DNA from: Mobula birostris
Lineage: Eukaryota
NCBI RefSeq assembly: GCF_030028105.1
Contig: NC_092378.1
Location: 109,667,731 to 109,731,730, forward strand
Length of the DNA stretch: 64,000 nucleotides
Reading direction: 5' to 3'
Shown here: piece after piece, positions 1,435 to 64,000 of the stretch
Layout of the letters: each line of letters starts with the position of its first letter
Position numbering within the stretch: position 1 is the stretch's first letter
Notes under the pieces: generated by a model
The model's database searches: none
What the model was told of the DNA's origin: nothing
The model's input: the letters and a program-made list of their open reading frames with translations, nothing else
Program-made: the position numbers and the translations under genes

Positions 1435-1588
1435 TGGTGCAGACAGTATACGTACAGCCATCTCAGAGTTTCGGTGCACAGCCAGTGCAGACAACCTGTC
1501 CAACTTGTCATCAGGTAGTGTTGACACGTGTTCGCTACACACCGGGAGCACTGACTTGGATCAGCTGTGGAGGTCTCTTCGTGTTTGG
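1435..1588 (+). CDS. LITAF: LITAF penultimate coding exon (N-half of LITAF/SIMPLE zinc domain)
   Basis: Acceptor tctgtttctcatag, donor GG|gtaggt. Translation (phase 1): VQTVYVQPSQSFGAQPVQTTCPTCHQVVLTRVRYTPGALTWISCGGLFVFG, with the first CxxC and the GALTW hydrophobic segment typical of LITAF. The phase-2 end matches the next exon. Confidence 0.93.
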
Positions 1589-8616: not shown

Positions 8617-8748
<132 letters not shown>

Positions 8749-40135: not shown

Positions 40136-40221
40136 ATACCTAAGCCTCAATACCCCTGTGTGCAACTGGATCTTTGATTTCCTCACTTGCCGATTCCAGG
40201 CAGTTTGGATTGGCAACAACA

Positions 40222-41769: not shown

Positions 41770-42921
41770 AGTCATAAGGTGGGAGTGCTGGTGGCGGACC
41801 CAAATGCAAGACACAGACACTGAAGTACTAGGAACAGGACTAGGTGAGTCAAGCAAGCAAGGGAAGTTGGGAAGAAACAATGCTGGACAAGACACAGGCT
41901 CTGGACGAGGCTAGGAGACAGGGCCTGGGCTAGGACAAGAACTTGGAACCTGGACAAGGACTCCGAGCCAGAGACCGGACAGGGACCCAGAACCTGGGTC
42001 TTGACTCAGGCTTGGACCCCAGATCTAGGCGAGGACAAGACGTGTCTACAGGACAAGGAGTGGCAACAGGACTGGACGTGAGACTCTTGAACAGGACGAG
42101 GGAACCCCAGCACCAGGCTGGGTGAGGTACTCCAGGGCTGGGCGAAGCACATGGACAGGATGAGAACACGAAGCCATGGCTAGGACTAGGCGAGGTACAT
42201 GGACATGGCTTGGACTAGACGAGGTACTCCTGGGCTGGGCAAGGCACAAGGACAGAACAAGACCCCAAAGCCTTGACTTGGTCTTGGGAGACAGGAACGC
42301 AGAACGGAGCCAGGACCCCTCCTTGGGAACAGGACATAGGACCAGGACTCATACACAGAACACAGAGAGACAGGTGCCAACACAAGGTAGCGGCAAATGG
42401 CCAGACTTACCTAGCAAAGGCGTGGACACAGAGATAGTTCCCAACACAAGGTAGCGGCAACCGGCCGGACCTACCTAGCAAAGGCGTGGACACAGAGACA
42501 GTTCCTAATATGAGGTAGCGGCAAATGGCCAGACCTACCTAGCGAAGGCGTGGACACAGAGACAGTTTCAAACAACAAAAGACAGTTCCTAATCTAGACA
42601 CAGCAAGGTTCCAGTCTTGCTCCGGCAGTAGAACCTGATAGCGATACAGGCGAGGACTCAGGCAAGGTTGCAGGCAAGTCTTCAGGCCGAGGCTTCAGGC
42701 AGAGGTTGCAGGTAGAGGCTTCAGGAGGAGAGTGAAGGGAAGGGAATAGTCCAGTAAATGAAATTGAACCCAGAAGCTATTTATGTAGCCAGCCCAAAAT
42801 CAGAATCATGTGCCTCAATTAAGGCACACAACTGGTCAAGGGAAAACTGGAAAACCTGGAATATGGATCGATGGACTGGACCATGAACCGGAATGCGGGC
42901 TTCATGGACTGGACCATGACA
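41770..42921 (-). mobile_element. Solo LTR (Gypsy-like) with 5-bp TSD
   Basis: Ends (a)gtcat...atgaca with TSD tcttt (41765-41769, 42922-42926); TATA-like motif on the minus strand near 42780. Confidence 0.75.
42383..42570 (+). repeat. Three ~63-bp tandem repeats inside the LTR
   Basis: aggtagcggcaa..ggcc.gac.tacctagc.aaggcgtggacacagaga.agtt, three copies. Confidence 0.85.
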
Positions 42922-43659: not shown

Positions 43660-44085
43660 TCAGAATCAGATTTAATATCACTGGCATATGTCCATGAAAT
43701 TTGTTAAATTTATGTCAACAGTACATGAAATATATGATAAATAAATACAGAGAAAAATGAGTTACATTAAAATACATATATTAAATAGTTAAGTTAAAAC
43801 AAGTAGAGCAAAATAATAGAAATAAAAGAGTAGTGAGGTAGTGTTCATGGGTTCAGTATCCATTTGGAAATCCAATGGCAGAGGGGAGGAAGCTGTTCCT
43901 GAATCGTTGCATGTGTGCCTTCAGACTTCTGTACCTCTTTCCCGTTGGTGACAGTGTGAAGAGGGCATGTCCTGGGTGGTGCGGATCCTTAATGATGGAC
44001 GCCACTTTCCTGAGGCCGGCTCCTTGAAGATGTCTTGGCTACTGCGGAGGCTGGTACCCATGATGGAGCTGACTCATTTTACAAG
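43660..44085 (-). mobile_element. Rex1-type 3' fragment
   Basis: atcagaatcagatttaatatcactggc tail and a KVASIIKDPHHPGHALF remnant. Confidence 0.7.
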
Positions 44086-44153
44086 TTTCATATTATTATT
44101 GATTACATGTTTCATCATATTATTCGCCGGGGAACTGAAACCTTAGTTTATGC

Positions 44154-44232
44154 GAGGGGTTCCCAACGAGGGGTCCACGTACACCTTAAGTAATGCTATT
44201 GGTCCATAGCATAAAAAAGTTGGGCAACCCTG
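44154..44232. mobile_element. ~80-bp hAT-type MITE
   Basis: (g)aggggttcccaac...gttgggcaaccctg with imperfect 8-bp TSD gtttatgc/ggctatgc; a second copy lies at 48333. Confidence 0.7.
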
Positions 44233-44859
44233 GGCTATGCATTCTGACTCTTCATTTAAAATGGAAACCGAAAATACTGGGCACAACAGGTCAGGCAGCA
44301 TCTATCAGAAGAGAAACATGTTTAATATCTCAGGTCGAGTTCTAATTGTCTCTGACCTGAAATACATGTACCGACACTTTTTCCTCTGTTCTCCGACACT
44401 TTCTGCTTTTATTGCAGATTTGTTTCTTGGTCGGATCATTAGATAACCATGCTGGGGAATTGGCCCCGTACTTAATACACGACTGATGTCTTATTGTGCG
44501 GCGTGATTGAAATCTCGGCGGTTAAGTCTCGCTCTTTCGTTCAAAAGTTCCGAATTAAACTGAAAAGATCTATAATGTCAAGAAAAATAAGCATAAAAAA
44601 ACTGCATACGTGAGTTAGGCAGCAAACAGAGAAATAAGGGAAAGGACTAGAGAGGGAAGGGGAGGGAGATGCGTCTGGAATGAATCGCTCAGTGAGACAA
44701 TCTAACATTTCTGGCGCAGATTCAATCTGCAGACTTGCACCGTGTGCTGCTCTCAACGAACATAGTTTGAAGACATATTACACAGCGATCTAACATTCTG
44801 AAACGAACATCATACACGAAGAACTTATCTCATGAATCAATTAAGGAATTCCTGAGGCT

Positions 44860-45150
44860 GATGTTTCATTAAAATTTTCTGTTTTTTAACTGAGCGTGAT
44901 GTATTTCCAAACGTGTTACTGCTGTTTGACGAGTGTTAACTTTTTAACCAATCAAGCTATTAGCCAACCTACGGGGGCACGGGATTGGACGAAAGTTTTC
45001 AGCTGCTCCCACTCCTTTCACGCGTGGTGGAAAGAGTCAAATGTCCTGATCCGCCGGCTGAAGGCTGGGTTTAACGGTGCCAGGGGCAGCTTCATCTTCT
45101 CTGGGGACTGACACCGTTTGTTCAATGCTGGTGTGGTCGAGATTCCACTG
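44860..45150 (+). promoter_or_regulatory. Putative promoter/5'UTR of the LLTP gene
   Basis: Locally CpG-rich unique DNA; CCAAT at 44948-44952 and inverted CCAAT (ATTGG) at 44984-44988; E-box-like cacgcgtg near 45019. Confidence 0.5.
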
Positions 45151-45205
45151 ATGATAATTATGAGACTACTTCTCTTTCTTAGCGCGGTTCTCAGCACTTT
45201 CGGAA
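45151..45205 (+). CDS. LOC400499: ApoB/apolipophorin-like large lipid transfer protein (LOC400499-like), coding exon 1 (signal peptide)
   Basis: M(IIM)RLLLFLSAVLSTFG hydrophobic leader ending at the consensus donor A|gtaagt (phase 1), downstream of a CCAAT-containing CpG-richer region. The start could be 45151 or 45160. Confidence 0.75.
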
Positions 45206-45645
45206 GTAAGTGTTCTTCCATTTCTCTGTCGTTTCATGCAGTTAGAGGGGAAAAAGGGATCCTCCATCCTGGACATGCCGATTCTTTTCAGGATTTCATT
45301 TAATGTCCGCGTAGTAAATTGTTTTAATTGTAAATATTCACACCGGCACTGTTAGTGTAAATTGCCGCTTTCTTCCACGATAACCAGAGCAAGTTTGCAG
45401 CCGGTCATTCAGTCCACCGACCCGTCATTCATGCTGAACTGCAGGACGGTTCCTTCTGTGAAACGTTGTCTGTACTCGGAAACACTGACACCTCCCTGCA
45501 CAGAACTTTAATCAAAAGATGCAAACATTGCCTCCAACCCCGATGACATGACGTTACCGTATTTACCGAGATGATAGAGGCAATTATTAGGTTTTCCAAC
45601 GAACTTCGTTTGATGCAACTGATTGTCTCTTTCTTTCCTTTGTAG

Positions 45646-45696
45646 GAAATGTAGCGAAGTCTCGTCCGGCAGGTAACTGCGTGTCTGTCTGCACTG
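45646..45696 (+). CDS. LOC400499: LOC400499-like LLTP, coding exon 2
   Basis: Strong acceptor ttgtctctttctttcctttgtag. 51 nt, phase 1-1: (R)NVAKSRPAGNCVSVCT(G), donor G|gtacgt. An alternative in-phase donor lies after 45672. Confidence 0.7.
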
Positions 45697-46639
45697 GTAC
45701 GTACCACTGCCATCTGTCCATAGCATCACAGCAGCGGCGTCAATCCTGCAAAAACTGGGTAGTGTAGCCGAGAGGATGCTGCAAAGCCATGTGGAGCTGT
45801 TTTTAATCTTTGTTAATGATAAGATTCCGCGGTAACGAAACAGAATTTTATACAATCCCTTCTGTTTGGGGATTGATAATGATTGGGACTGCGGGCAGCT
45901 GAAAACGCGGCACCCCTTGTGTCCTGGGTATCTCTGAGCCTCCGCAGGTTCAATCCCCCGAATCCGCCCGTGCAGACGGAACAGCAGTGTGGGTTTTTTT
46001 TGTCTTGTATAATGAAACGTCCACGGCCAAAACATTAGTCATTTGTAACCGCTTGTGTACAATTATCTTGGTGTTGCTGGAGCTTGGCGCTGCAACAACT
46101 CAAACAGATTGAATTCAGTGTGGCTCGCTGTGCTGCACTTCAAAGTGAAAGCAATTTATTAATGCATACTACTCGTACTTGTCCCGGATTAGCTTTCATC
46201 ATCCTTATTATCCCCACGCCGGCTCAGCATAGCATTAAGTGCTGCAATTCCTAGCAGGGCTGTAATATTATGAATAATGTAATTGACTTCCGTGCTTGAA
46301 TCATAAGTGGAATGAATTCCTTGTATTATACTCGGGGAACCACTTTTCCAACGCCCTAATTTTGTGTACTTACTGGGTTATTTAGCATTCCGTAGGCACT
46401 CCTAAAATGTAGGGCTTTGCATCACTTGCTCAACCTAATGCACCTCAAGGATGCGTCTATCTATTGTGGTCACCAGACTAAATCTTCTAATATAGGCTAA
46501 TTATGGTTGAATCCAGTGTTCATTTTGCACCGAGTAATAAATCGGAAAATACCGGAAACTCTCGGTCAAGGGAAAAATCGTCTTCGCGGCCTTTGATCAG
46601 GCATCCTAAAGCTTCATGGAACTTGCTGACCCATTCTTG

Positions 46640-47065
46640 CAAGGGTGTGGAGGCATTGCAGATGGTACAGAAGAGGCTAGAGTTGTATCCTCTGGAGTAG
46701 TGGAGGATGAGGGGAGACTTGACTTGCGTTTGTAAGATTGAGAGGCATGGATATACATTTGGTATCTTTCTCCCAGGGATGAAATATCTAATATAAGAAG
46801 GCTTGCATTTAAGGTGAGATGGGAGGCAAGATGTTTTAAAAACAGCGACGTGTACCTCAGATACGCTGCCAAAGGTGGTAGTGGAGGCAAATATCACAGA
46901 GCTAGTTAATAGGTTCTTATGCATATGAATATATAGAGAATGGGGGCATATGGACAGGTCTGGGCAAAAGGGACTAGCTTTGTATACTTCTAATTACTAG
47001 TTTAATTAGTTTGACACAATATCGTGTGCTGAAGACCCTATTCCTGTGTTGTCCTGTTCTGCTCT
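46640..47065 (+). mobile_element. Decayed CR1 3' fragment
   Basis: VEALQMVQKR remnant through a cctattcctgtgttgtcctgttct 3' end. Confidence 0.65.
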
Positions 47066-47554
47066 AACAGATTTCATTCTGGTGCAACTATTTGGTATGT
47101 GCCCTGAGTTCATTTTCTGTTAAGGAAGGGAAGGTGGGTCCTACCCTGTCCTAGAGATAGACTCCCTATACTCCTCCAGAATGTTCATTGTTGGTCAGGG
47201 TTGGCTTATAGCTGGCCAGCATTTTCTCTGGAGGAAAACCTACTGTCAGTGGCCACTTTCACCAACCAGCAGCACTTGTAGACAAGTGTGTAATGCAGGT
47301 ATACTGATTCCTCTCTCTGCTGTTTGGGTGGAATTTTATCTGTTTGCCCTTCAATCGTTTAACATTTATTGGAATACATCTAATAAAGTGATGCATTCTC
47401 TTTATAGCTTTTATTTTTGAAGCCCCAAAAGATATTGGATATTATCCTAATTTGCTTTTTAAACAAATAATTGGTAAATTCTTCACTTGTGTTCCATTTA
47501 TTATGCAGTTTTAACCTATTTTGACATTAACTGAAACTTTGAAATTTCTTGTAG

Positions 47555-47715
47555 GTACCAATTATCTGAATTACCAGAAAGGGTTCCGATATACCTATGA
47601 GTACACAACTGTTGCTAATACATTCCTGCAAGGAAATTCCCATGAGAACAGTGGACTTACAGTAGAATGTTTGGTGAATATTGATGTCATTGACAAGTGT
47701 CACTTCATCTTAACG
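47555..47715 (+). CDS. LOC400499: LOC400499-like LLTP, coding exon 3 (start of Vitellogenin_N/LPD_N domain)
   Basis: ag|GT...ACG|gtaggt. (G)TNYLNYQKGFRYTYEYTTVANTFLQGNSHENSGLTVECLVNIDVIDKCHFILT parallels the apoB N-terminal pattern YTYxY...CxVx+xV...CxFIL. Confidence 0.85.
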
Positions 47716-48332
47716 GTAGGTATTTATCTTTGTAAATGTTCAAATTTATTTGGTGTGATACAGTGCAGGCTGTAAATAAAATCCATTACAGTTAAATTGT
47801 AATTCTGCCTTGTGTATCTAACGTGACTTGTGATTTAGCTGGTGTTCAAATTGGCTGTAGTTTGGATGAATGGGATTAATTGACTCATTTTGTAAAGAGA
47901 ACACACATAGTGGGCCAAAAGGCATCTCGTGTGTTGGATGAAACTGTGGCATATCTTGTTGAAACCTTTGCAGAGTTTCCTTTATAAATAAATCGCTTTT
48001 ATGTACCTTCTAGTACAGCAGTACTGCTAGCTTGATATGAAAATGGAAAGCCCAGAATGGGAAAAGTTGTAGGTGTTTTTCGAACATACTTGTGACTCCC
48101 TATTTGAAGATGCCTGGAAGATGCCAATTAAATACTTTTCTTCTACCTCTCTAAAATATCAGACTCTTATAACACTTGGAAATTGCAAATGAAATTGCAA
48201 ATGGACATTTCTAGGTGCACACTCTCACCTAGAGATCCTGGGGTGCTCTAATAGTTGAAGTAAAATGGCATTGATGTTCTGGGCACTTTTAATTGTCGTT
48301 CCACTTTAACAAATATCATTCATGAGCACCAC

Positions 48333-48414
48333 CAGGGGTTCCCAACCTGGGTTCCACAAACTCCTTGCTTAATGGCATTGGTTCATGGCATTAAAAAAAA
48401 GCTTGGGAGCCCAT
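48333..48414. mobile_element. ~80-bp hAT-type MITE
   Basis: caggggttcccaacc...ttgggagccc; homologous to 44154-44232. Confidence 0.65.
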
Positions 48415-49282
48415 AATCTAGATCAACACCCACAATTACAATGAATATTTGCATGTTTTTATAACCAAAGTTGTTCTTGCCTGATTACTACTCTGTAACT
48501 GGGTTTTAAGCATGGCGACTGGGATTTCGAAGAAAGGGATCAGGGTGCATAGTCATTCTTCTGACTGAGATGGAGATTAGGAGGGTATTGTTGAGATCAA
48601 GATCAGAGACGTTGTTGAGGGAAGGTGAGGACTATGATCCTGACAGATGCTTTGGAAGGGAGGGTGATTGGAGGTTGGTAAGGCGAAGAGATTGTGAGAA
48701 TTTGTGGTAACTTGTGGGCATGAAGAAAGGTTTGTGGGGTTAGAGGGGCTCAGGTGCTATTGTAGTTTTAATGCATGGTGAAGAGGATTTGGGCAAATAT
48801 TTTACTCCTCTTTTTTAAAATTTGGTCCAGTAATACATAAATTTGACCATATTGTCCCTGAAGTGCCCTGAGTTGGATGTCACCAGAACAATGTGGGCCA
48901 AGTTCCCTGGTTATGATGCAAAAAGGAGCATTGTATGGGGACTGATATCAGAACTTATGACCCTTGGGTAGAACTTACACATGAATCACTATAGGATTTG
49001 CTCTGCAGAATTTTCTGAATGAAGCAGATTTATCTAGAAATGGTTGCTATTGTACTTCACTCATGGAAAAAAATGAACTTTTTAAATGCACATGGCAGAA
49101 TTTTCAGGCAAAAATCTTGTGACAACCCTGAAAGCCAACTGATTCCTGCAAAATTGTTTACTCTATTTTCTGTTCTTATTTTTGTGGATGGATAGTATAC
49201 CCTACATGCAATCTTAACTTTAGCATTACAGATTTGTGCGTGAATTCATGAATTCTTTCTTTCATGTGTGAACTTGAAGATA

Positions 49283-49395
49283 TCTCTTTTTCAGTTAGTC
49301 CTGACGAAGGGTTTCGGCCCGAAATGTCTACTGTACCTCCTCCTATAGACGCTGCCTGGCCTGCTGTGTTCACCAGCATCTTTTGTGTGTGTGTT
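49283..49395 (+). mobile_element. Penelope pLTR fragment with hammerhead variant
   Basis: tcagttagtc CTGACGA agggtttcggccc GAAA tgtc tactg...gcctgctgtgttcaccagca. Confidence 0.8.
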
Positions 49396-50754
49396 GAGTT
49401 ATTAGAAGTGTGGGGGGAAAGCAGGAATATTGTTTGAAATGTTTTTCCCAAATGCAGGACCTTTGATAGGTATGTGACCACTTATTTGTACTTCAGTTGT
49501 GTGTCTCTCTGGCTCCATGTACTGTTATCACTTTTATATTTTCAGCTGCTTTTCAGCTCTCTTAGAGCAAAGTCTTGACTGCCTCTGCTCTTGCTTCCTA
49601 ATACTCTTTTATTTCCCACAATAATCTGATGAAGATTCTGCTTTATGAATGAGCTCCAGGTAGGATCTAGCTTTAATTTGTTTGACTTGTACATTCTGGG
49701 CAAATAACACATAGGCAAACATCTGCCATCAAATTTGCTTCATCATTGACCCTGCCTTTTATTGGTAATATTTTTTTGACAGAGCTTTCGTTCACATTTT
49801 AAGGTCATTTGCGGTTAAATGTGGCAGCCTTCCCTTTCTCCCTCTGCCCACCCCCCCCAAAGGCCTGTATTTTGTGGAGGTAACTTACTAACAATGTGGT
49901 GTTAGCCTGACTTCCTCAGTAGTGTTGAATAAGGCAATTTGGAAAATAAAGAATATTTTGGTATAATTGCCATCAAAAATTATAATTTAAGTGATTAGAT
50001 TTTGTACATTGTTGGGACAGCGTAGTTTGTTAAATCTTGTAAGACATGTCTGATTAAATTATGTTTTGCAAACAATTGCCAGCCATCTGTTACCCTAAGT
50101 ACAGCACTTGGAAGGATGATTGTAAATAATCGAATAAACAAATTCAGGTTTTTCAGTAGGTAATGATGATCAATAAACTTTAATTCAACCTAATTGCTCA
50201 GCACTTATCAGATTATGACCTGTTGAATAAAACATTAATTTCCTATTCATAATTTCAACTGATTTTCATTAGTTTATCTTTTGGACGGCAAGTGAAAATG
50301 AAGTTTCATTTAATGCCCTTCCTTTAGTTATAACGTTTTCCCTTGATTGTTTTTTTTAAACTGGACCCCAGCTCATGTTTAATCAAATTATTGTCTGTTT
50401 CCATCTGCCAGTAATCTGCACAATATGCTTGGCTTGTCATATCAATCTGTAAAAAGATATTTAAGTATCTGCTACATAATACTTTGGCTCACTTTGAATA
50501 TCATGAATTGTCTGACTGCTTTGCTATTTTCTGCATGACATACTGTCATTCCATATAAAAATAAAGATATTAGAAGTTCCATTTAAAGTATTTCGTAGTA
50601 TTAATTTAACTAAATTTCTGAAGAATCTTAAATGTTCTAATCTCTAAAGTATTAAACGTTCTTATACATTGTATTTTCCTGGTAGAGGTGGTTTTTAGTA
50701 GTGATAGAAACTCTTTATCACGATGATTATGGTGATAATAGACAAAAAAAAAAA

Positions 50755-52500
50755 CAAGACCTGCAAAGAGAATTAGGCCATTTGGCCCATAGGGTATGTT
50801 CTGCTTTTTGATCATGATGGATTTTTTTTCATCTCAACTCCATTTTCCTGCCTTCTTCCTGTAATATTTGGCGCTCCTGCTACTCAAGAACCTATCTTCC
50901 TCCGCTTTAAATATACCCAATAACTTGGCCTCCACGGCCATCGGTGGCAATGAATTCCACAGATTCACTACCCTGTGGCTAAAGAAATTTCTCTTCATCT
51001 GTTCCAAAGGGACTTCCTTGTGTTCTGTGGCTGTGTACTCTGGTCCCATATTCACCTACTATAGAAAACATCCTCTCCACATCCATTCTGTCCAGGCTTT
51101 TCAATATTTAGTAGGTTTCAGTGAGATCTCCCTCAGACTAATAAACTATAAGTGCATGCTTAGGGCATAAGTTGACCCTTTCATTCCCAGGATTATTCTT
51201 GTTAACCTCCTCTGGACCCTCTCCAATACCAGCACATCCTTTCTTAAATATGGGGCCCAAAACTGTTCACAGTACTCCAAATGTGATCTGACCATTGCCT
51301 TAAATCTGCAGCATTACATCCTTGCTGTCATAGCCCAGTTCTCTTGAAATGATTGTTCACATTATTTTGCCTTCATTACTACTGACTCAACCTGCTGATT
51401 AACCTTCAGGAGATCCTGCATTAGGACTCAAGTCTCTTTGCACCTGATTTCTGAATATTCTCCCCATTTAGAAAATAGTCTATACTTTTAATCTTTCTGT
51501 CAAAATACATGGCCATACAATTCCCTACACTATATTCTATTTGCTGCCCTTTGCCCATTCTGCTAATCTATCCAAGTCCTTCTCTAGACTCCCTGCTTCC
51601 ACAACACTATCTGCCCCTCCACCTATCTCAGTATCACTTGGCCACAGAGCCATCAATTCTGTCATCCAAATCAATAACACAAAAATGAAAATTTGCAGAT
51701 CCTGCAGAACACCACTAGTCACCAGCAGCCAACCTAAAAAGACCCTCTTTATTTCTACTGTCTTCTGCCAGTCAGCAATTCTTCTGCCTGTGTTAGTATC
51801 TTTCCTGTAATACTATGGGTTCTTGTCTTGTTTAGCAGTCTCAAGTGTGGCACCTTTTCAAAAGCCTTCTAGAATTACAACTAAACAACATCCATGGACA
51901 CTCTATTGGCTATCCTGCCTGTTATTTCCTCAAAGAATTCCCTACAGATTTGTCAGGCAAGATTTCCCCTTAAGGAAACCATGCTGACTTGTGCCTATTT
52001 TACTATTGGCTCCAAGCACCCCAAAACTTCATTTTGTAATAAAGGACTCTAACCTACTGAAGTCAGGCTAATTTCCTTTCTTTTGCCTCCCTCCCTCCTT
52101 AGAGTGGAGTGATATCTACAATTTTCCAGCCCTCTGAAACCATGCCAGAATCTAATGATTCTTGAAAGATCATTACTAATGCTTCCACATTCTTGTTAGC
52201 TACCTCTTTCAGAACCCTGGGGTGTAGTCCATCTGATCCAGGTGACTTAATCTACCTTCAGAACTTACAGCTTCTCAAGCACTTTATTAATAATTATCTT
52301 TGCTATATTGTATGCCCTCTCTTTTAGCTCTTGGGGCTCTCTTTCACGTCCCTTGTCAGCCACATTGCATGATCCTCCCTTTAGAATGGTTATTCTTCTT
52401 TGTGATGAACTGATGCCAAATCACTCCCCAAAACACCACCCATTGCTAATCTACTGTCATCTCTGCTAGAGTCCCCTTCCAATCAACTTTGGCCATCTGA
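50755..52500 (-). mobile_element. Old CR1 LINE ORF2 remnant
   Basis: RNFFSHRVVNLWNSLP, TSGVLQ and SLEKDLDRLAEWAK remnants. Confidence 0.85.
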
Positions 52501-52549
52501 TCCTTGTGAGCAAATTGATGTACCTTGTACCTTTCATCACCTAAGTTAC

Positions 52550-52980
52550 AGAGGAAGGTTGATCAAGTTGGGTCTTTATTCTTTGGAACGTAGAAGGTTG
52601 AGAGGGGACTTGATAGAGCTATTTAAAATTATGAGGGGGATAGATAGAGTTGATGTCGATAGGCTTTTTCCATTGAGATTGGGGAGATTCAAACAAGAGG
52701 ACATGAGTTGAGTGTTAAAGGGCAAAACTTTAGGGGTAACATGAGGGGGAACTTCTTTACTCAGGGAGTGGTAGCTGTGTGGAACGAGCATCCAGTAGAA
52801 GTGGTTGAGGCGGGTTCGATGTTGTCATTTAAAGTTAAATTGGATGGATATGTGGACAGGAAAGTAATGGAGGGTTATGGGCTGAGTGCAGGTCGGTGGG
52901 ACTAGGTGAGAGTAAGAGTTCAGCACGGACTAGAAGGGCCGAGATGGCCTGTTTCCGTGCTGTAATTGTTTATGGTATAT
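52550..52980 (+). mobile_element. Younger CR1 3' fragment
   Basis: LGLYSLERRRLRGDLIELFKI...NFFTQGVVAVWN and a 3'UTR. Confidence 0.85.
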
Positions 52981-53451
52981 AGAAAAATCAGAAGACTTAG
53001 TTTAAAATTATTCCTGTGTGAATTAATAGCATTTGCTGAACTTTCTAACATGACTAAAATATTGCATTCCTAGATGAGCATGTGACTGTGTCCATTTAAT
53101 GTTCAGTACTTTATTTTCTTGATCACAGCTAATGGTTGAACTGTAGCTGTTGGTCTCAGCTATCCTGGTTTATAGACGAGTAATAGACTGGGACTTCATC
53201 TTCCAATCACTGTTCTGAAACTTTTGCTGCAAGTGCTCATGTAACTATGAATTTGAAAGATATGTGATATTCCCTTTGCTAGAATATACTCATGAAACTC
53301 CCAAGGAAAGTTTACACTGATTTGGTTCTCACTTGGCTGAAGTAACAAAGATCCATGGAATTTTATTTCAACAAGTGTTTTCAGAAATGAGAGAAGAAAC
53401 ATTGGTGGGTTGCATGAACTTCAGTTTTGAATGATCCATTTGTGCTTTCAG

Positions 53452-53522
53452 CTCAAGCAAACCCAGATTAAAGGATCCATGTCAAACAAGGAGGAGTTTG
53501 TTCCAGATCACGAGAAGCTCAG
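53452..53522 (+). CDS. LOC400499: LOC400499-like LLTP, coding exon 4
   Basis: Acceptor tttgtgctttcag, phase 0 matching exon 3. LKQTQIKGSMSNKEEFVPDHEKL, donor AG|gtactg. The gene continues beyond the window. Confidence 0.7.
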
Positions 53523-54429
53523 GTACTGTACCTCTTTTAAGCATAAATAAATTTTGGTTTTAACATTTCAGTTTAACTTTTTTAACCGGTTTATTGCAGG
53601 CCTGCTATGCTAATAGACGTGTAGCCTGCCCTTTTTCTCCAGATTAATGCCAAGGGGAAATGGAGTTACGGTCTTGTTATAGTGCTGGTCCTCATTTTCA
53701 ATAAAGTGCAGCCTTGTTCGGGAAGCACAGGAATGCTGAATTGTCGTCAAATAACAGAATAACTAAAATTGTTGAGTGTTGCACTTTGAAATAACAATAA
53801 ATCTTGTATTGAATACAGCAAAACTCCCAACATCCTGATGGTTTGGTATCTGGCTCACCAGCAGTTGATTTTGCCTGTGCTCCCTTGCTGCTTTCCAGGG
53901 CCCACAGGGACATTTATTATAGTTCTGTGCAACACTCTCTAAGGAAAGCAGTAAATTAAAAATGTGCTGGTGTGTTAATGGGAATAAAAAGTAATAATCT
54001 GGAAAATCACCTATTCTGCCATTACCTGGATAATTGGTTTCTGTAATGGATAGAATACTATTAATGACTGGAAAGATCAATTGCTATCCTTACTACATAC
54101 GGACCAACTATGCAAGAGTCCTTTGAGGCCAAAAGAAAGTCAATTCTTGTTACTTAGGATGGGGTGGTAGTTGTGAAGGTGATGGTGTGGGGTAAGAAAC
54201 TACATTCTCTCTTTTTGTATTGGGACGTGCAAACCAGTTCTTTAAGGTGTATGCAGATTACTTGAAGAATAATAAAAGTAAAAACATAGATCCTTTAGCC
54301 CAATCTGCTATTCAGTAGGATTCAGTGCCTCATGCCTGTTGTCTTTTTAAAAACCATGTCATCACCATGTTCTGTAGCATCCAAAGACCAACCTATATTT
54401 GCACGGCTGTACTTGGAATTTCTAAGCCA

Positions 54430-54616
54430 GCCGGTGGTGTAGTGGCATCAGCACTGGACTTCAAGGCAAATAGTCCCAGGTTCAAATCCAGCCGTCTCCT
54501 TGCATGCTTCCCATCTGTGCTGGGTTGAATGCTGGGCTAGCAACTCGGCCTTATAAAAAAAACAACAAAAGGAAATGCTGCCTGGTGCACTACAACACGT
54601 GGAAAGGAACAACAAC
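54430..54616 (+). mobile_element. tRNA-derived SINE
   Basis: tRNA-like head gccggtggtgtagtggcatcagc...ggttcaaatcc (A and B boxes), a non-tRNA body, and an (aac)n tail. Confidence 0.7.
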
Positions 54617-55539
54617 TTGGAACTTCTACTGGGGCAGAAAATACTCAAAAGACTTTTAACCCTGAGTAAAGAACCACTCAGAACTAAAGTAAGACTGTAA
54701 ACCAATTCCATGTATGCTGGTTACATCTACCCAGACATTTCCTTTCTTCCTTAGTGTCCCTCATTTTCTGAGCTCCAGTATGGTACTGCTTGAAAATAAA
54801 TGTGAATACATGAATGGTGTGGACAATGTATAACATTGTATGTATAACAATGTATGTACATTCTGTGTATTAACAGCAGATCTCTGGTGTTGTCCATAAT
54901 GAGTAAGATATTGGGCTTAACATTAACATCATGTTTCAACAGTAAGATATATTAAAAATGAGAATCAGCTTTTCAGTTCTAATTTTCAGCATAACTTAAT
55001 GCTGCCCCCCCCCCCAGCACACAGATGCTGCTTGACTTGTTCAGTTGTACACCCATTAGATTCTGTAATTTTTATGGAAACTTTGAGAATTTGATTCCTA
55101 TTGAAGAGGATGATTGGGAGAAGATTCTGGATGTGGGCAGCCGTGTGCAGGGTGTACCTGACTGGAAGAGGGTCTTGTGGTCCAGTACTTCTCCGGAGGG
55201 GAAGCTGAGGTTTGGCAGAGCTGTGGAATGTTGTGTGGTATTTGGTCCAGTGCCCTCTGTGGGTCTGTCAGCAATGAAGGGAAGAAAGAAGGTCTGTCCG
55301 ATAGTGTTGACATGAACTATTTGGTCTGGTAGTGCTGACTTTAATTACTTTCTAGCCATTATATTTTAGTGATTTTAATTCCTGGATATCTGTCTTGCAC
55401 CCATGTAGCACTTCACAATATGTAATATAACTAGCAGGATTAATAAATAAACAGGACTGGTGAAAGCTGTAAAGGTGTCAGGCAATTTGGTGCTGAATAT
55501 AATAGATGCATAAACCTTGCTTTTTAAATTGCAGTTATA

Positions 55540-55710
55540 GGCTTCACCTATCACCTTCCAGCTAGCCTCCTTCCCTCCCCCCACCATTTTACTTTGGTGT
55601 CTTCCTCCTTCCTTCTCAGTCCTGAAGAAGGGTCTCAGCCCAAAATGGTGACTTCTGTTCATTTCCATAGATGCTGCTTGACCTGCTGAGTTCCTCCAGC
55701 ATTTTGCCTG
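55540..55710 (+). mobile_element. Penelope pLTR fragment with decayed hammerhead
   Basis: cagtc ctgaaga agggtctcagccc aaaa...cctgctgagttcctccagcatttt. Confidence 0.75.
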
Positions 55711-57281
55711 AAAGAGTTTTTGTCTAGCTGTCATCTACATGTTTCTCGCGCCACATTTCTCTCATTGCTGTTGTATCTCTCTGCCCTTCTTCTCCCAACC
55801 TGTTCTCACTGCCGCTTTTTCTGTGCTCCTGTTATTGATTCAACTTTGCCTGCATAGCCCAAGCTCTCTCTCACGGCTACCTTCACATAAATACTTTTCA
55901 TTTATTGAAAAGTACAACTGATTTTCATCACTCCGAAACTTTGATCAGTTTTAGAAACAATTCCTTAGGTTTTTGTGAAAAGAGGGCTCTTTAAGGAGCT
56001 GACAAACTCTGTCATTTCATATCAGTGGGAATGCAGTGGGATACCAGTTTAATTAAAATTTTAATTTTACAGAAACTTCGCATGATTAATATGGGATTTG
56101 ATGTCCACCAGTTCCTCGGTGTGCTGCCACTGAGATCACATCTGTCCAAGAAATGGTGGTTCAAATGCAGGCCTTTGAACTTAGAACAGTACAAGCCCTC
56201 TAGCCCACAATATTGTGCTCACATTTTAATCTATTATAAGATCAATCTAATCATTCCCTCCCTCATAACCCTCCATTTTCTCCATTTTTCTTTCATCTAT
56301 GTGCCTCTCTAAGAGTTTCCTAAGTGTTCCTAATGTATCTGCCTCTACCACCACTTTAGTAGCTTATTCCATGCACCTACCACTTTTTGTGTATTAAATA
56401 AAATCTACCTTTGACATCTCTCCCCCTATACTTTCTTCCAATCACTTTAAAATTATATCCACTTGTGTTAGCCACTTCCACCCTGGAGAAAAAATCTCTG
56501 GCCATCCACTCTACCTGTGCCTTTTATCTTGCACACCTCTATCAAGTCACCTGTCATCCTCCTTTGCTCCAGAAGACAGGCAGCATCATGGTAAATCTTC
56601 CCTGCTCCATCTCTAAAACTTCTACATCTCTTCTACAATGAGTGGACCAGAGCTGAATACATTATTCCAAGTACGGCCAAAGCAGGGTATTATCGAGCTG
56701 CAGCATTACCTCACGGCTCTTTAACTCAATCCCCTGACTAATGAAGGCCAAAACACAATATGCCTGCTAACCGACCCTATCAACTTGCGTGGTAATTTTG
56801 AGGGATCTATGGACATAGACGCCAAGTTCCCTCTTTCTCCACAGTAAGAATCCTACCTTTAACCTTGCATATAGACTTCAAGTTCGACCTTCTAACGTGA
56901 ATCACTTCACACTTTTCTGGGTTGAACTCCATCCTCCACTTTTCAGCCCAGCTCTGCATCCTATTAATGTCTCATTGTATCCTATGACAACCTTCTACAC
57001 TATCCAGAACACCACTAACCTTTATGTCCTCTGCAAATTTACTAACCCACCCTTCCCATCCAAGTCATTTAGTAAAATCCACCAAGTACAAAGGTCCCGG
57101 AATAGATCCCTGTCGACCACCACTGGTTACCAACCTCCGTGAAGAATATTCTCAATCTGCTACCAATGCTCTGCTCTGGCTTCTATGAACAAGCACATTC
57201 TGAATCCACACAGCCAAGTTTTCCTGAATCCCATGCCTACAGCCTTGATGACTGAGCCTACCATGGGAGCCTTATCAAATA

Positions 57282-58899
57282 CAGTGGCATGCAAAAGTTT
57301 GGGGACCCCTGGTCAAAATTTCTGTTACTGTGAGTAGCTAATTGAGTAAAAGGTGACCTGATTTCCAAAGGCATAAAGTTAAAGATGACACATTTCTTTA
57401 CTATTTTAAGCAAGGTTACTTTTTTACTTCCATCTTTTACAGTTTCAAAATAACAAAAAAGGAAGAGGGCCCGAAGCAAAAGTTTGGGCACCCTGCACGT
57501 TCAGTACTTAGTAACACCCCTTTTGGCAAGTATCACAGCTTGTAAATGCTTTCTGTAGCCAGCTAAGAATCTTTCAATTCTTTGGAGGATTTTCACCCAT
57601 TCTTCCTTGCAAAAGGCTTCTAGTTCTGTAAGATTCTTGGGCTGTCTTGCATGCACTGCTCTTTTGAGGTCTATCCACAGATTTTCGATGATGTTTAGGT
57701 CGGGGGACTGTGAGGGCCATGGCAAAACCTTCAGCTTGTGCCTCTTGAGGTAGTCCATTGTGGATTTTGAGGTGTGTTTAGGATCATTATCCTGTTGTAG
57801 AAGCCATCCTCTTTTCATCTTCAGCTTTTTTTCCACAGACTGTATGATGTTTGCTTTCAGAATTTGCTGGTATTTAATTGAATTCATTCATCCCTCTACC
57901 AGTGAAATGTTCCCTGTGCCACTGACTGCAACACAAGCCCAAAGCATGATCGATCTACCCCCGTGCTTAACAGTTGGAGAGGTGTTCTTTTCATGAAATT
58001 CTGCACCCTTTTTTCTCCAAACATATCTTTGCTCATTGCTGCCAAAATGTTCTATTTTAACTTCATCACTCCACAGGACTTGTTTCCAAAATGCATCAGG
58101 CTTGTTTAGTTGTTCCTTTGCAAACTTCTGATGCTGAATTTTGTGGTGAGGGCGCAGGAAAAGTTTTCTTCTGATGACTCTTCCAAGAAGGTCATATTTG
58201 TGCAGGTGTCGCTGCACAGTAGAACAGTGCACCACCACTCCAGAGTCTGCTAAATCTTTCTGAAGGTCTTTTGCAGTCAAACAGGGGTTTTGATTTGCCT
58301 TTCTAGCAATCCTACGAGCAGTTCTTTCGGAAAGTTTTCTTGGTCTTCCAGACCTCAACTTGACCTCCACCATTCCTGTTAACTGCCATTTCTTAATTAC
58401 ATTACGAACTGAGGAAACGGCTACCTGAAAACGCTTTGCTATTTTCTTATAGCCTTCTGCTTTGTGGGTATCATTTATTTTAATTTTCAGAGTGCTAGGC
58501 AGCTGCTTCGAGGAGCCCATGGCTGCTGATTATTGGGACAAGGTTTGAGGAGTCAGAGTATTTATAAAGCTTTGAAATTTACATAACCTGGCCTTTCGTA
58601 ATGATGACTGTGAACAAGCCATAGCCCTAACAAGCTGACTAAGGTCTGAGACCTCGGTAGAAGTTAACTGAGAGCTCAAATCTCTTGGGGTGCCCAAACT
58701 TTTGCATGGTGCTCCTTTCCTTTTCTTCACTCTAAAATTGTACAAAATAAAAATAATACACGAATCTTGTTTAAAATGTTGAAAAGAATGTTTCATCTTT
58801 AACTTTATGACTTTTGGAGATCAGTTCATCTTCTACTCACTCAACTATTCACAGTAACAGAAATTTTGACTGGGGTTCCCAAACTTTTGCATGCCACTG
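57282..58899 (-). mobile_element. Tc1/mariner DNA transposon, IR/DR type, full length
   Basis: ~220-bp TIRs starting cagtggcatgcaaaagtttgg, inner direct repeats (~57476, ~58690), and TA TSDs at 57280-57281 and 58900-58901. Confidence 0.95.
57501..58520 (-). pseudogene. Tc1 DD34E transposase with one in-frame stop
   Basis: Paired-like HTH, GRPRK, WSDE...QQDNDPKH...SPDLNIIE (34 residues between D and E). The two ORFs (210 + 128 aa) are in the same frame, split only by TGA at 57888-57890. Confidence 0.92.
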
Positions 58900-60715
58900 T
58901 ACCTTACTAAAATTTGTGTATAGCACATCCACTGCTCTATCTTCATCAAATTGAATTTGCTGAGAAAAATAACAAAAGAATTAGGGTCGTGAGACGCTAA
59001 TTGCCCTAACAACTCCATGCTCACTATCACTAATCAGGCTATGCTTCAGATGCTTGCAAATCCTGTCTCTAAGAATCCACTCCCATAGTTTGTCCACTAC
59101 TAGTATAAGATTCACTGGACTTGAATTCTCAGGGTTTTGCCTTTTTACTTGAACAAAGAAAAAAAAAACATTTGCCCTCCTCTAATCTTCTGGTACTATA
59201 CCTGTTGCCAGTGAGGATACAAAGATCATCACCAAAGATGCAGGAATCTCTTCCCTCACTTCCTGTAGTAAACTGGGAGATGTATTGCATCTGACCCTGG
59301 GGAGTTAACCATGCAAATGTTTTGAAAAGTATATCCTTTTTCTTAACATCGACACGATCCAGCGTATTAGCCTGCACAGTTGCCTAGGTCTCTCTCAGTG
59401 CTGAATACTTAAGCAAAGTTTTCATTTGAGGACTACTTCTATTTCCTCCAAATTCAGGCATATGCTAGACCATAAGACATAGCAGAAATAGGCCATTAGG
59501 CCCCTCGAGTCTATTCCGATATTCTATCATTGCTGATTTATTACTCCCCTCAACTGTATTCTCCTGCCTTCTCCCCATAGTATTTGACACCCTTACTAAT
59601 CAAAATCCTATCAAACTCTGCATTAAATACAACCAACAACTTGGCCTCCATAGCTGTCTGTAATAATGAATTCCACAGGTTCACCACCATCTGGCTAAAG
59701 AACTTCCTCCTAATCTCGTTTCTAAAAGGATATCCTTGTATTTTGAGGCTGTGCCTTCCAGTCCTAGACTCCTCCACTATAGGAAACGTCCTTGTCACAT
59801 CCACCATCTAGGTCTTTCAATATTCAATAGGCTTCAATGAGATTCCCTCCCATTCTATTAAACTCCAGCAAGTACAGGCCCAGAGCCATTAAACACTCAT
59901 CGTATGTTAATTCTTTCATTCCTGGAGCTATCTCATGAACCTCCTCTGGACCCTCTCCAGTATCAGCACATTCTTTCTTGGATAAGAAGCCCAAAACTGC
60001 TCACCATATTGTTTGTTTCCTCTTTTGTCTCTGATTGATTCTACCCTGACTCTAATAATTCTCTTGTTCTCTATGTTTGTGTAGAATACTTTGGGGTTAC
60101 CTTAATCCTCCTCTTCAAGGCTTTCATGTGTCCTCCTAGCTCTCCTAAATCCATTCTTGAGCTCCTTCCTGACTGCCTTGTAACTCTCTAGAGCCTGGTC
60201 TGACCCTTGCTGCTTAAATCTTAGGTAAGCTTCTTTGCTTCTGACTAGATGTTCTGCATTTCTTGTCAACCATGGTTACCTCACCCAACCATCAGTTCCC
60301 TGCCTTATTGGAACAGATCTCTATGGAACCCCCAGCAACTGCTCCCTAAACAACTTCCACATTTCTGTTGTGCATTTCCCTGTGTACATCTGTTCCCAAT
60401 TTATGCTGTCAAGTTCTCCCCTGATAGTCGAAGCAAGCAGCTGAAGCAGGGAGTGGAAGAATTCGGGTAGAAGAAGTCATTTTTTTTTTCTTAAACACGG
60501 CTCGGGGAGAAGGGTCTGCACTGCGCAGGCGTGTGACGTAGCGCGCCAAGGTTTAAAAGCAGACCACCATATACAGCGGCCATCGTCGGAGTGGACTGAG
60601 TCAGAGTGGGATGGCTTTGGCTCAACAGGCTTCAGCGAGAACAGGCAGAGGCCAGGGTAGGTTCCGGTAAGTTTTTTTGTTCAGATTGTTTAGAGTAGAG
60701 AGAGTGCCAGGCAGG

Positions 60716-61639
60716 ATGTTGGAATGCTCCTCTTGCAGGATGTGGGAAGTCAGGGAGCCCTCCGGTGTCCCTGACAACGACTCCTGCAAGAAGTGCATCC
60801 AGCTGCAGCTCCTAACAAACCGCGTTAGGGAACTGGAGCAGGAGCTGGATGACCTGTGGATCATTCGGGAGAATGAGGAGATTATAGATAGTAGCTACAG
60901 GGAGTTAGTTATGCCAAAGGAGCAGAGCACAGGAAATCGGGTCACTGTCAGACAAGGGAAGAGGAAAGGGCAGGCAGAGCAGGGTTCCCCTGTGGCCATT
61001 CCCCTCAACAACAAGTATACCGCATTGGATACTGTTGGGGGGGATGACTTACCTGGGACAAGCTGCAGTAGCCGGATCTCTGGCACTGAGTCTGGCTCTG
61101 CAGTGCAGAAGGGAGGGGGGAGAAAGAGGAGAGCGGTTGTGATAGGAGACTCAATAGTTAGAGGTGCAGATAGGAGGTTCGGTGGTCGTGACAGAGAATC
61201 CAGGATGGTTTGTTCCCTCCCGGGTGCTAGGGTCAAGGATGTCTCTGATCGATTGCATGACATTCTGAAGTGGGAGGGTGACCAGCCAGATGTCGTAGTG
61301 CACATCAGTACCAATGACATAGCAAGGAAGAGTGAGGAGGTCCTGGGGACTAAGTATAGAGAGCTTGGTAGGAAGTTGAAAAGCAGGACCTCAAGGGTGG
61401 TAATCTCAGGATTGCTACCTGTGCTACGTGCCAGTGAGGGTAGGAATAGGATGCTCTGGAGGATGAACAAGTGGCTGAGGAACTGGTGTAGGGCACAGGG
61501 TTTCAGATTTCAGGATCATTGGGACCTCTTCTGGGGCAGGTGGGACCTGTACAAGAGAGACAGGTTACACTTGAACTACAGGGGGACCAATATCCTTTCA
61601 GGGAGGTTTGTTAGTGCTATTGGGGAGGCTTTAGACTAG
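60716..61639 (+). CDS. CR1 ORF1p: zinc finger, coiled coil and SGNH/GDSL esterase-like domain
   Basis: CSSC...CKKC, LQLLTNRVRELEQELDDL heptads, VVIGDSIVRG, LPGARVKD, HISTND, DRLHLN; open reading frame. Confidence 0.88.
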   Translation: MLECSSCRMWEVREPSGVPDNDSCKKCIQLQLLTNRVRELEQELDDLWIIRENEEIIDSSYRELVMPKEQSTGNRVTVRQGKRKGQAEQGSPVAIPLNNKYTALDTVGGDDLPGTSCSSRISGTESGSAVQKGGGRKRRAVVIGDSIVRGADRRFGGRDRESRMVCSLPGARVKDVSDRLHDILKWEGDQPDVVVHISTNDIARKSEEVLGTKYRELGRKLKSRTSRVVISGLLPVLRASEGRNRMLWRMNKWLRNWCRAQGFRFQDHWDLFWGRWDLYKRDRLHLNYRGTNILSGRFVSAIGEALD

Positions 61640-63062
61640 ATTTGCAGGGGGATGGGAACCAGAGTGCCAGAGCTGACAGTGTGGCTGGGGTGAAAATAAA
61701 TGATGTTAAAAGTTCAAGGAAATCTGCTAATAGAAAGGTTGTGAGTGGTGTTAAAAATCTTCTGAGGTGTATATATTTCAATGCTAGGAGTATTGCGGGG
61801 AAGGCGGATGAGCTGAGGGCGTGGATTGACGCGTGGAATTATGACGTTATAGCAATTAGTGAAACTTGGCTACAGGAGGGGCAGGACTGGCAGCTTAATA
61901 TTCCAGGGTTCCGATGTTTCAGATGTGATCGAGGCAGAGGAATGAAAGGTGGGGGAGTAGCATTGCTTGTTAGGGAAAATATTACAGCAATGCTCAGGCA
62001 GGACAGATTAGAGGGCTTGTCTACTGAGTCCTTATGGGTGGAGCTGAGAAACAGGAAAGATATGGCCACATTAGTGGGATTGTGTTACAGACCACCCAAT
62101 AGTCAATGAGAATTGGAAGAGCAAATCTGCAGAGAGATAGCAGGCAATTGCAGGAAACATGAAGTTGTGGTGGTAGGGGGTTTTAATTTTCCATATATTG
62201 ATTGGGACTCCCATACTGTTAGGGGTCTAGATAGTTTAGAGTTTGTAAAATATGTTCAGGAAAGTTTTCTAAATTAATATATAGAGGGACCAACTAGAGG
62301 GGATGCAATATTAGATCTCCTGTTAGGAAACGAGTTAGGACAAGTGACAGAAGTCTGTGTAGGGGAGCACTTTGGTTCCAGTGATCATAACACCATTAGT
62401 TTCAACTTGATCATGGACAAGGATAGATCTGGTCCTAGGGTTGAGGTTCTTAACTGGAAGAAGGCCAAATTTGAAGAAATGAGAAAGGATCTAAAAAGCG
62501 TGGATTGGGACAAGTTGTTCTCTGGCAAGGATGTGATCGGTAGGTGGGAAGCCTTCAAAGGAGAAATTTTGAGAGTGCAGAATTTGTATGTTCCTGTCAG
62601 GATTAAAGGCAAAGTGAATAGGAATAAGGAACCTTGGTTCTCAAGGGAAATTGCAACTCTGATAAAGAAGAAGAGGGAGTTGTATGACATGTATTGGAAG
62701 TAGGGAGTAAATACGGTGCTTGAGGAGTATGAGAAGTGCAAGAAAATACTTAAGAAAGAAATCAGGAGGGCTAAAAGAAGACATGAGGTTGCCTTGGCAG
62801 TCAAAGTGAAGGATAATCCAAAGAACTTTTACAGGTATATTAAGAGCAAAAGGATTGTAAGGGATAAAATTGGTCCTCTTGAAGATCAGAGTGGTTGGCT
62901 ATGTGCGGAACCAAAGGAAATGGGGGAGATCTTAAATAGGTTTTTTGTGTCTGTATTTACCAAGGAAACTGGCATGAAGTCTATGGAATTAGGGGAAACA
63001 AGTAGTGAGATCATGGAAGCTGTACAGATCGAAAAGGAGGAGGTCCTTGCTGTCTTGAGGAA
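61615..63062 (+). pseudogene. CR1 ORF2 (endonuclease region) with nonsense mutations
   Basis: Same-frame segments 61642-62109, 62344-62703 and 62716-63062 are separated by stops, then interrupted by an LTR. Confidence 0.88.
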
Positions 63063-63929
63063 TGTTATGTACCCCGTAACTGGGTTGCTAAACCAGCAGA
63101 AATGGACCACTTAGTTGGAGTCTGGATTACTGGAACTAAGGAAGTTTTATTAGAGAAATAAGTAACACAGTACTCTAAACGTAAGGATATAAATGCAACA
63201 GGTTAGCAATGATAAAACACACATGTACACAGAACTAGGATAATAGGAATCAATCAAGCTCTATCGCAGTCTAGGGGTAAAATGATCAGACTCAAGTGAC
63301 ACAGAGTTCAGTTCAGTTTAGTTCAGTTCGCAGTAATCGCTGTTGTGCAGTTGGGGAGAGACAGAGAGAGAGAGAGCGAATGTTGATATTCAAATCGGAT
63401 TCAACAGACCTTTGATATTCCTCGCAGTTAGCTTTCGGCGCGAGCCCTTTTTAATGTCTTCTGAGGTCACCAACTGTGACCACCCCCGCCCCCCCCCCCC
63501 CCCCGTTCCGGATACAATCGTTCTTCTGCGGTGAACCCGGCACCCAGGCAAGGGTGGACACACACACCAGGTTCCCGCTGATCGTACTGTCTCACCCCTG
63601 TGCGTCTATGGTTGGTCCAGTGATCAGACCTCCAAAACTCACACCAACTTGTGGGGGCACACCGCACTTCCAGGGTCTCATTATCTCGTGGTGTCGTGGT
63701 GTGTCTCTTGCCTTAGCGAACCTGTTCCTTTTATCCCCCTGCTGGGGTATCGCCCGTCCATCAAACTTCAAACAGTTCAGGTTCAAAGCAACCGGTCTCG
63801 GACAATACTCGGAACTGTGTCTCCTTTTTGTTAATCCCTCTCGTCTCTCTCTTATTAGCATTTTGAATGCTTCCCCCATTTGTCTCCCTCTTATCTCTTT
63901 TATCGGCATCTTCTGATAACTTGGTCACA
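63063..63929 (-). mobile_element. Solo LTR (Gypsy-like, 4-bp TSD) inserted in CR1 ORF2
   Basis: tgttatg...gtcaca termini with perfect TSD ggaa (63059-63062, 63930-63933). CR1 coding resumes exactly afterwards; minus-strand AATAAA near 63146. Confidence 0.88.
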
Positions 63930-64000
63930 GGAAAATTAAAGTGGATAAATCCCCGGGACCTGACAGGGTGTTCCCTCGGACCTTGAAGGAGACTAGTGTT

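Follow-up and report, generated by a model that had tools for sequence, protein, structure and literature searches.

In the fly, secretion of the apolipoproteins apoLpp and apoLTP requires MTP, and LTP is a scarce particle of density 1.23 that is required for the passage of gut lipid to lipophorin (PMC3406001). LTP is tethered to the cell surface by receptors and catalyzes exchange there (PMC4486166). Only APOB and MTP are counted as human Vitellogenin_N proteins in the fly paper (PMC3406001). The human gene LOC400499 has been called unidentified (PMC11725579), its name appears in a proteomics table (PMC8066727), and it showed a suggestive association with high-density lipoprotein cholesterol (P 3.9e-6, 451 people; PMC10869499). 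No functional study was found in the open-access papers naming LOC400499, which were screens, genome-wide association studies, and reviews, and no papers on zebrafish dkeyp-106c3.1 were found in the open-access literature. The importance of the present locus lies in the family being functionally dark. Here we analyzed a 64,000-nucleotide (nt) stretch of the ray Mobula birostris (the window; contig NC_092378.1, positions 109,667,731 to 109,731,730 of the forward strand), in which four exons begin a gene that is almost certainly, judging from its sequence, the ortholog of LOC400499.

Four-exon gene model

The original prediction of four exons with canonical splice sites and end phases of 1, 1, 0, and 2 was confirmed by re-reading, and translation of the joined exons gave the identical peptide. 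All four donors were GT, and all three acceptors were AG, each after a pyrimidine tract; the joined 338 nt gave 112 stop-free codons. The coding part of exon 1 (45151..45205; plus strand, as are the other exons) contains 18 codons plus 1 nt, encodes the signal peptide, and is followed by the donor GTAAGT. Exon 2 (45646..45696; 51 nt, phase 1-1) carries a Cys30-x3-Cys34 motif, exon 3 (47555..47715; 161 nt, phase 1-0) carries the start of Vitellogenin_N (PF01347 positions 1-47) with Cys74 and Cys84, and exon 4 (53452..53522; 71 nt, phase 0-2) ends within the codon for Arg113 of the RefSeq model of Mobula hypostoma, XP_062915630.1 ("apolipophorins-like"; hereafter the Mobula model). The joined model was identical to the Mobula model at 111 of 112 residues, and showed 96% identity to Hypanus XP_059837117.1 over 93 amino acids (aa) and 74% to Narcine XP_069761933.1 over 112 aa. 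Exon 3 alone matched Vitellogenin_N with an E value of 3.5e-5 and 23 bits, just below the cut-off of 24, while exon 4 alone gave no domain match in the same profile search. A protein search with exon 3 gave two hits among three candidates, both ray "apolipophorins-like" proteins. The four-exon structure is real and beyond chance.

The signal peptide has a hydrophobic core at residues 1-16, with hydropathy up to 3.0, and is conserved in orthologs. An upstream in-frame stop was present at 45109. There are in-frame ATGs at 45151 and 45160, the second of which (Met4) has the better context, with A at -3. Met4 aligns with the start of the shark orthologs, and the true start may be at 45160. An additional in-frame GT donor was seen within exon 2 at 45672, and its use would delete Cys30 and Cys34. 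The first exons of the Hypanus, Pristis, and Narcine X2 RefSeq models differ from the present one and lack a signal peptide; the switch to the other N-terminus lies at the exon 2 acceptor in Hypanus, and at the exon 3 acceptor in Narcine X2 and Pristis. Exon 1 of the present model thus suggests a correction of those ray RefSeq models.

The CpG-rich island at 44250..46550 spans the putative promoter and exons 1 and 2. The CpG observed/expected ratio per kb was 0.83-0.84 at 44001-46000, the top two of 64 windows of the stretch, and this CpG-rich sequence would be the promoter. No full estrogen-response palindrome was present in 44001-46500, and no TATA, HNF1, HNF4, or C/EBP motif was seen near the start in what was a weak test. 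A scan of the 64 kb against Rfam gave 0 matches.

Intron 4 (53523..64000, plus strand) is longer than 10.4 kb and continues past the window edge; within it lie a transposon of the Tc1 type and the 5' portion of a long interspersed nuclear element (LINE). Exon 5 was not found by sensitive tblastn of residues 113-260 across the whole window (best E 0.41); exon 5 onward lies outside the window. The four exons make up less than 3% of a protein of about 4,100 aa, and the wording "apparently intact" of the original prediction therefore goes beyond what they show. The M. hypostoma protein, which is 99% identical, stands in below for the remainder.

Orthology with human LOC400499

A search with residues 30-670 of the Mobula model gave 188 matching proteins out of 6,812 candidates; the named proteins among the matches listed (119 of the best 120 of the 188) were all vertebrate, from lamprey to mammals. 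The same region matched human XP_016879420.1 (LOC400499 isoform X3) over the full query, with 42% identity and 522 bits. Against solved structures it scored 138 bits for APOB, 90 for lipovitellin, and 36 for MTP. The human isoform X3 model starts after the signal peptide, which is included in the gibbon model. A tree of the N-terminal module with 59 rows united all 14 vertebrate rows, from lamprey to human, in a single clade (100/99). The Mobula model matched the entire Vitellogenin_N domain at 290 bits.

The Pfam family PF21013, named "LOC400499", covers a region beyond both the window and the Mobula model and was scored in ray and shark orthologs only. It gave 745 bits in Pristis, 727 in Hypanus, and 755 in Mustelus, and 739-759 bits in five full-length skate and shark proteins (4,076-4,113 aa), which have VWD and C8 at the end. 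DUF1081, a domain expected after the open beta-sheet in the APO family (Avarre 2007), scored 20.8 bits in Hypanus, below the cut-off of 25, and 39 bits in amphioxus; it was not reported in any of those five full-length proteins.

The bit scores, the vertebrate clade, PF21013 in the orthologs, and the LITAF gene upstream together argue for orthology with LOC400499. The product is predicted to be a secreted large lipid transfer protein (LLTP) and belongs to the APO (apoB/apolipophorin) family; the chondrichthyan proteins are about 4,100 aa long. A signal peptide followed by the start of Vitellogenin_N had been proposed from the four exons, and both were borne out, by the hydrophobic core and by the 23 bits of exon 3 and 290 bits of the Mobula model. 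Assignment to the LOC400499 paralog rather than to APOB, vitellogenin, or MTP was likewise upheld by the 522 bits against 138, 90, and 36, the 14-row clade, and the LITAF synteny. The description of the gene as hidden does not stand, as a near-identical RefSeq protein (111/112 residues) and a Pfam family, PF21013, exist. As a gene it is ordinary: it is annotated in a congener, is covered by a Pfam family, and is a further member of an uncharacterized family.

Protein anatomy in the orthologs

The domains of the orthologs run from a signal peptide through Vitellogenin_N, the open beta-sheet, and PF21013 to a long amphipathic-beta stretch, which is followed by an apolipoprotein-like helical block, then by VWD and C8, and lastly by a tail of about 265 aa. 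Among 30 chosen proteins spanning LOC400499, apoLTP, apolipophorin (apoLp), and apolipocrustacein (apoCr), Cys30, Cys34, Cys84, Cys175, and Cys195 were present in all 30 and Cys134 in 29. The APOB alignment has no counterparts of Cys30 or Cys134. Because APOB is without both, the alignment suggests a disulfide bond between Cys30 and Cys134; and since Cys30 is absent from APOB, exon 2 by itself separates this gene from APOB. A family profile matched APOB residues 42-1118 at 402 bits. Between residues 601 and 3200 of the skate protein, each 200-aa window had a larger beta than alpha moment, and the helical block before VWD matched apoA-I (E 2.5e-4). We take Q6ZTK2 to be LOC400499. Q6ZTK2 has been flagged as a dark protein in which membrane-contacting beta strands are abundant (10.1101/2025.01.20.633985). 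One Atlas entry is a PF21013 cluster named "YP015"; Atlas features of the central domain were 0.90-0.92 for PF21013 clusters and 0.89 for an unnamed arthropod cluster, which is a lead only. A CDtoxinA match on the Hypanus protein (E 0.04) was dismissed as chance.

The VWD-C8 region matched FCGBP, VWF, and mucins. The tail after C8 was 262-267 aa long in all six chondrichthyan proteins with a C8 end. It was missing in all 85 named proteins of bony vertebrates in which a C8 end was detected, where at most 87 aa lay beyond that end; this count leaves aside 21 of 106 long bony-vertebrate proteins in which no end was detected, and the lamprey model was too short for it. The tails of amphioxus, hemichordate, annelid, mollusc, and apoLTP proteins are homologous to it, with mostly 48-108 bits for the named rows; the homology in apoLp is weaker. 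Since gene-model errors shared by 85 proteins are unlikely, we infer from these alignments that the tail was lost in bony vertebrates. The VWA profile PF00092 matched two invertebrate tails (E 7e-4 and 1.5e-4), and TssR_VWA matched the ray tail at E 0.11. No VWA structure was present among 56 matches of the family profile, nor among the three matches of the tail to solved structures, which were chance. D-x-S-x-S is the metal-site motif of VWA, and it is not retained in the tail. These profiles hint weakly that the tail may be VWA-like.

Furin-type sites were present in apoLTP (757), in apoLp (716, 718), and in several teleost and mammal members (residues ~690-750); at the apolipophorin cleavage position such a site was absent from the chondrichthyan, bird, and reptile proteins examined. 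The Ser content of 50-aa stretches did not exceed 24%, and no phosvitin-like serine stretch was found.

Deeper relatives and insect apoLTP

The search of 50%-cluster representatives gave 1,461 proteins at E <=0.001, of which the best 150 were listed and 20 were looked up for names. A vertebrate profile was built from 27 proteins and scored against 34. The scores were 1,300 bits for amphioxus, 1,007 for Ptychodera, 895 for Owenia, and 884 for Pecten, followed by 630-656 for the apoLTP clade, 415-530 for the apoLp clade, and 350-496 for the apolipocrustacein clade. The amphioxus protein also contained PF21013 (118 bits), and the gene is therefore older than the vertebrates.

The trees were quick searches without bootstrap, in which clade labels past the named rows were taken from tree position. 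In the mixture-model tree of 1,486 concatenated columns, apoLp and apoCr were split from LOC400499, amphioxus, molluscs, myriapods, and apoLTP with an SH-aLRT of 99; the split of apoLp and apoCr from LOC400499, amphioxus, molluscs, and apoLTP had an SH-aLRT of 99 in both mixture-model trees. A clade containing the nematode Trichuris muris, with VWD-C8, was drawn beside vertebrate LOC400499 in three of the trees, a placement that is probably long-branch attraction. Without these 3 of 42 long-branch rows, which were removed after the tree had been inspected, vertebrates, amphioxus, and Ptychodera were grouped with a support of 98; a constrained tree with that group instead of the Trichuris clade was not rejected (p 0.36). 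A scenario in which apoLTP and apoLp arose by duplication within insects was weakly rejected (p 0.04, LG+G4). The amphioxus and scallop tails scored 99-140 bits with apoLTP versus 19-47 bits with apoLp. In orthology databases, fly Apoltp is paired with LOC400499, so the link may already be known outside the open-access papers. On these alignments and trees, the LOC400499 family is likely the ortholog of insect apoLTP. It is not filed here as an apoLTP member, because the trees are unrooted and have open forks, and an alternative was not rejected.

Proposed function

By analogy with insect LTP, the protein would be a secreted, scarce lipoprotein scaffold that catalyzes lipid exchange, and not a bulk carrier or a yolk protein; we put this at close to an even chance. 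The protein would enter the endoplasmic reticulum, where its N-terminal module might load phospholipid with the help of MTP, as in insect apoLpp and apoLTP, and the beta-sheet would wrap the lipid. It would then be secreted as a scarce, dense lipoprotein, dock on lipoprotein receptors or matrix, and catalyze the exchange of lipid between cells and bulk lipoproteins, like insect LTP. The explanation as a whole, a ray LOC400499 ortholog acting as an LTP-like lipid-transfer catalyst, is evenly balanced in our estimate. Only tentatively do we extend it to the statement that vertebrates, including humans, make an ortholog of insect LTP, an overlooked apoB-family apolipoprotein of pre-vertebrate origin that catalyzes lipid exchange at cell surfaces, of which cartilaginous fish retain the complete ancestral version, including a VWA-like tail lost in bony vertebrates. 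If this were true, the native particle could best be sought in cartilaginous fish. Neither the apoLTP link nor the loss of the tail was found stated in the open-access literature. The interest of the locus rests on this testable link and on the tail retained in chondrichthyans, not on the four exons, and an apoLTP-like role is a concretely testable proposal for zebrafish (si:dkeyp-106c3.1) and shark plasma.

Several results weigh against this proposal. All trees were unrooted and were built without APOB, vitellogenin, and MTP; a tree in which vertebrates were constrained to join apoLp could not be rejected (p-AU 0.23), the N-terminal-only tree was an open fork for apoLTP and apoLp, and the LG+G4 tree placed vertebrates outside the amphioxus-apoLTP group. 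With the skate tail, one tail of the apoLp clade reached 55 bits, above the 46-50 bits of the four apoLTP tails, and the higher apoLTP scores may reflect merely faster evolution of apoLp. The furin motif R-x-K/R-R near 700-760 was absent in all four chondrichthyan proteins examined, none of which was among the five full-length skate and shark proteins. The RefSeq models of rays other than skates, four in all, are either short or split. Data on expression, secretion, or lipid binding were not found in the open-access literature for any vertebrate member, and orthology is no guarantee of retained function. The table of one review places LOC400499 with APOB as the ortholog of apoLpp, not of apoLTP (PMC12561791).

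Alternative explanations

The chance that the gene is instead a genuine APOB, vitellogenin, or MTP is practically negligible: Vitellogenin_N is common to all of them, and APOB is the best match to the N-terminal module among the solved structures, but the 522 bits for LOC400499 exceed those for all three, the orthologs carry PF21013 and VWD-C8 in a LITAF neighborhood, and APOB has no counterpart of Cys30 or Cys134. It is unlikely that the gene is decaying or truncated in rays, so that only an N-terminal module or no product would be made. This idea draws on the transposons in intron 4 and on the ray RefSeq models that end early or are split, with lengths of 748 aa in Mobula, 672, 656, and 513 aa in Narcine, 2022 aa in Pristis, and 419 plus 3675 aa in Hypanus. 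The Mobula 748-aa model and the Narcine models depart from homology at or before residue ~670, and Mobula residues ~415-453 are in neither piece of the split Hypanus models. However, short models were also present in two sharks, Heptranchias and Mustelus, and because of these the splitting looks like an annotation artifact. In Hypanus, the C-terminal model has an open frame of 3,675 aa, with 79% identity to skate, and the gene start is CpG-rich. Furthermore, lineage-specific changes avoided conserved columns in Mobula (4/187 conserved versus 37/351 variable columns, p 2.5e-4), Hypanus (2/90 versus 24/233, p 0.02), and Narcine (4/187 versus 46/351, p 7.5e-6), and the same avoidance was seen in a skate-sawfish control; the conserved columns were defined by 26 other family proteins, and the measure is a protein-level proxy, not dN/dS. 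The gene is probably intact and made in this ray.

With an intact LOC400499 ortholog, other functions have to be weighed against lipid exchange. Extracellular defense or surface biology could be the main job, through pattern binding or mucosal or matrix attachment by VWD-C8 together with the tail, lipid binding being a secondary function. The VWD-C8 matches to FCGBP, VWF, and mucins and the position of the gene next to LITAF in ray and bird alike fit such a role, human mentions come largely from immune and disease expression screens (PMC11725579), and immune side-roles of extracellular LLTPs have been discussed (PMC1783640). We nevertheless regard it as rather unlikely, given about 2,600 aa of amphipathic beta sequence of the lipoprotein-scaffold type and a complete lipid-transfer module, and some of the human reads may stem from LITAF read-through. 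The original prediction had instead raised a liver, yolk, or uterine role in cartilaginous fish, and a bulk lipid carrier or egg or uterine provisioning protein, like apolipophorin or vitellogenin, would share its lipid-transfer module with yolk proteins. Crustacean APO-family proteins are yolk precursors (PMC1783640), and the chondrichthyan copies are the longest and slowest-evolving among vertebrates. However, the family is pan-vertebrate, is retained in placental mammals, and has an amphioxus ortholog; phosvitin-like stretches are missing (<=24% Ser per 50 aa), C8 is present although all vitellogenins are without it (PMC12214520), and the CpG-rich start has no full estrogen-response palindrome. 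The word "apolipophorin" was not found in the sampled part of the open-access elasmobranch reproduction literature, and one shark vitellogenin paper (PMC10015161) mentions neither APOB nor LITAF. Provisioning is therefore unlikely, and no support was found for the suggested liver, yolk, or uterine role in cartilaginous fish.

Neighboring gene and repeats

The penultimate coding exon of LITAF lies at 1435..1588 on the plus strand (tblastn E 2e-14; PF10601 45 bits), and the last coding exon, with a TAA stop, at 8640..8748 on the same strand (PF10601 42.5 bits), 36.4 kb upstream of the LLTP start. AATAAA was seen after the LITAF exons at 9180, 9277, 10379, and 10551. A bird gene model fuses LITAF with the LOC400499-family gene, LITAF first, matching the ray order. 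Human LOC400499 is presumably directly adjacent to LITAF. It has been located in the RMI2-LITAF region of 16p13, on different genome builds (PMC10869499, PMC10016042, PMC4657880).

Repeats occupy further parts of the window. Within intron 4, a Tc1/mariner transposase in two frames (HTH_Tnp_Tc3_2, DDE_3) lies at 57501-58529 on the minus strand, and the LINE at 60671-63114 on the plus strand has a GDSL-esterase-like ORF1 that is open over 322 aa and, after it, an endonuclease open reading frame (ORF) that is broken; we take the LINE to be CR1-type. Upstream of the gene there are a GIY-YIG element remnant (19315-20133, minus strand), presumably Penelope-like, a transposase-looking ORF with zero Pfam hits (23723-24241, plus strand), and a reverse-transcriptase remnant (39574-40146, minus strand). 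A unit of ~60 nt was seen by eye in about three tandem copies at ~42380-42570.

Comparison with known systems

The closest described protein, M. hypostoma XP_062915630.1, has the same four exons as the window gene. The window gene encodes Phe at residue 46, the amino acid seen in 7 of the 10 chondrichthyan proteins compared; XP_062915630.1 has Leu there and stops at 748 aa, whereas the skate and shark models reach 4,076-4,113 aa. Human LOC400499 has the identical domain order up to C8, but is about 800 aa shorter and is without the ~265-aa tail. Vertebrate APOB-100 is homologous over its first ~1,100 aa and also has a long amphipathic beta region; however, it gave no VWD-C8 match (the best stretch ends at 1118) and was not listed in a single-sequence search with the full skate protein. 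Vitellogenin and MTP have the Vitellogenin_N module in common with the LOC400499 family, which differs from them in being without phosvitin, having C8, and being over four times the length of MTP.

Among the invertebrate proteins, apolipophorin II/I and the crustacean apolipocrustacein share the APO module, the N-terminal Cys pattern, and VWD, with weaker tail homology in apoLp, but they are shorter (3,300 and 2,570 aa), have lower profile scores, and fall on the opposite side of the split. Insect apoLTP (Megalopta XP_033342070.2, ~4,275 aa) gave zero PF21013 or Pfam C8 hits, its central ~2,500 aa could not be aligned, and it is furin-cleaved, at a site not seen in the chondrichthyan proteins examined. 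However, it has Vitellogenin_N, the open sheet, VWD, and the N-terminal Cys pattern in common with the ray family, carries a homologous tail (E 3e-19), and lies on the same side of the main split.

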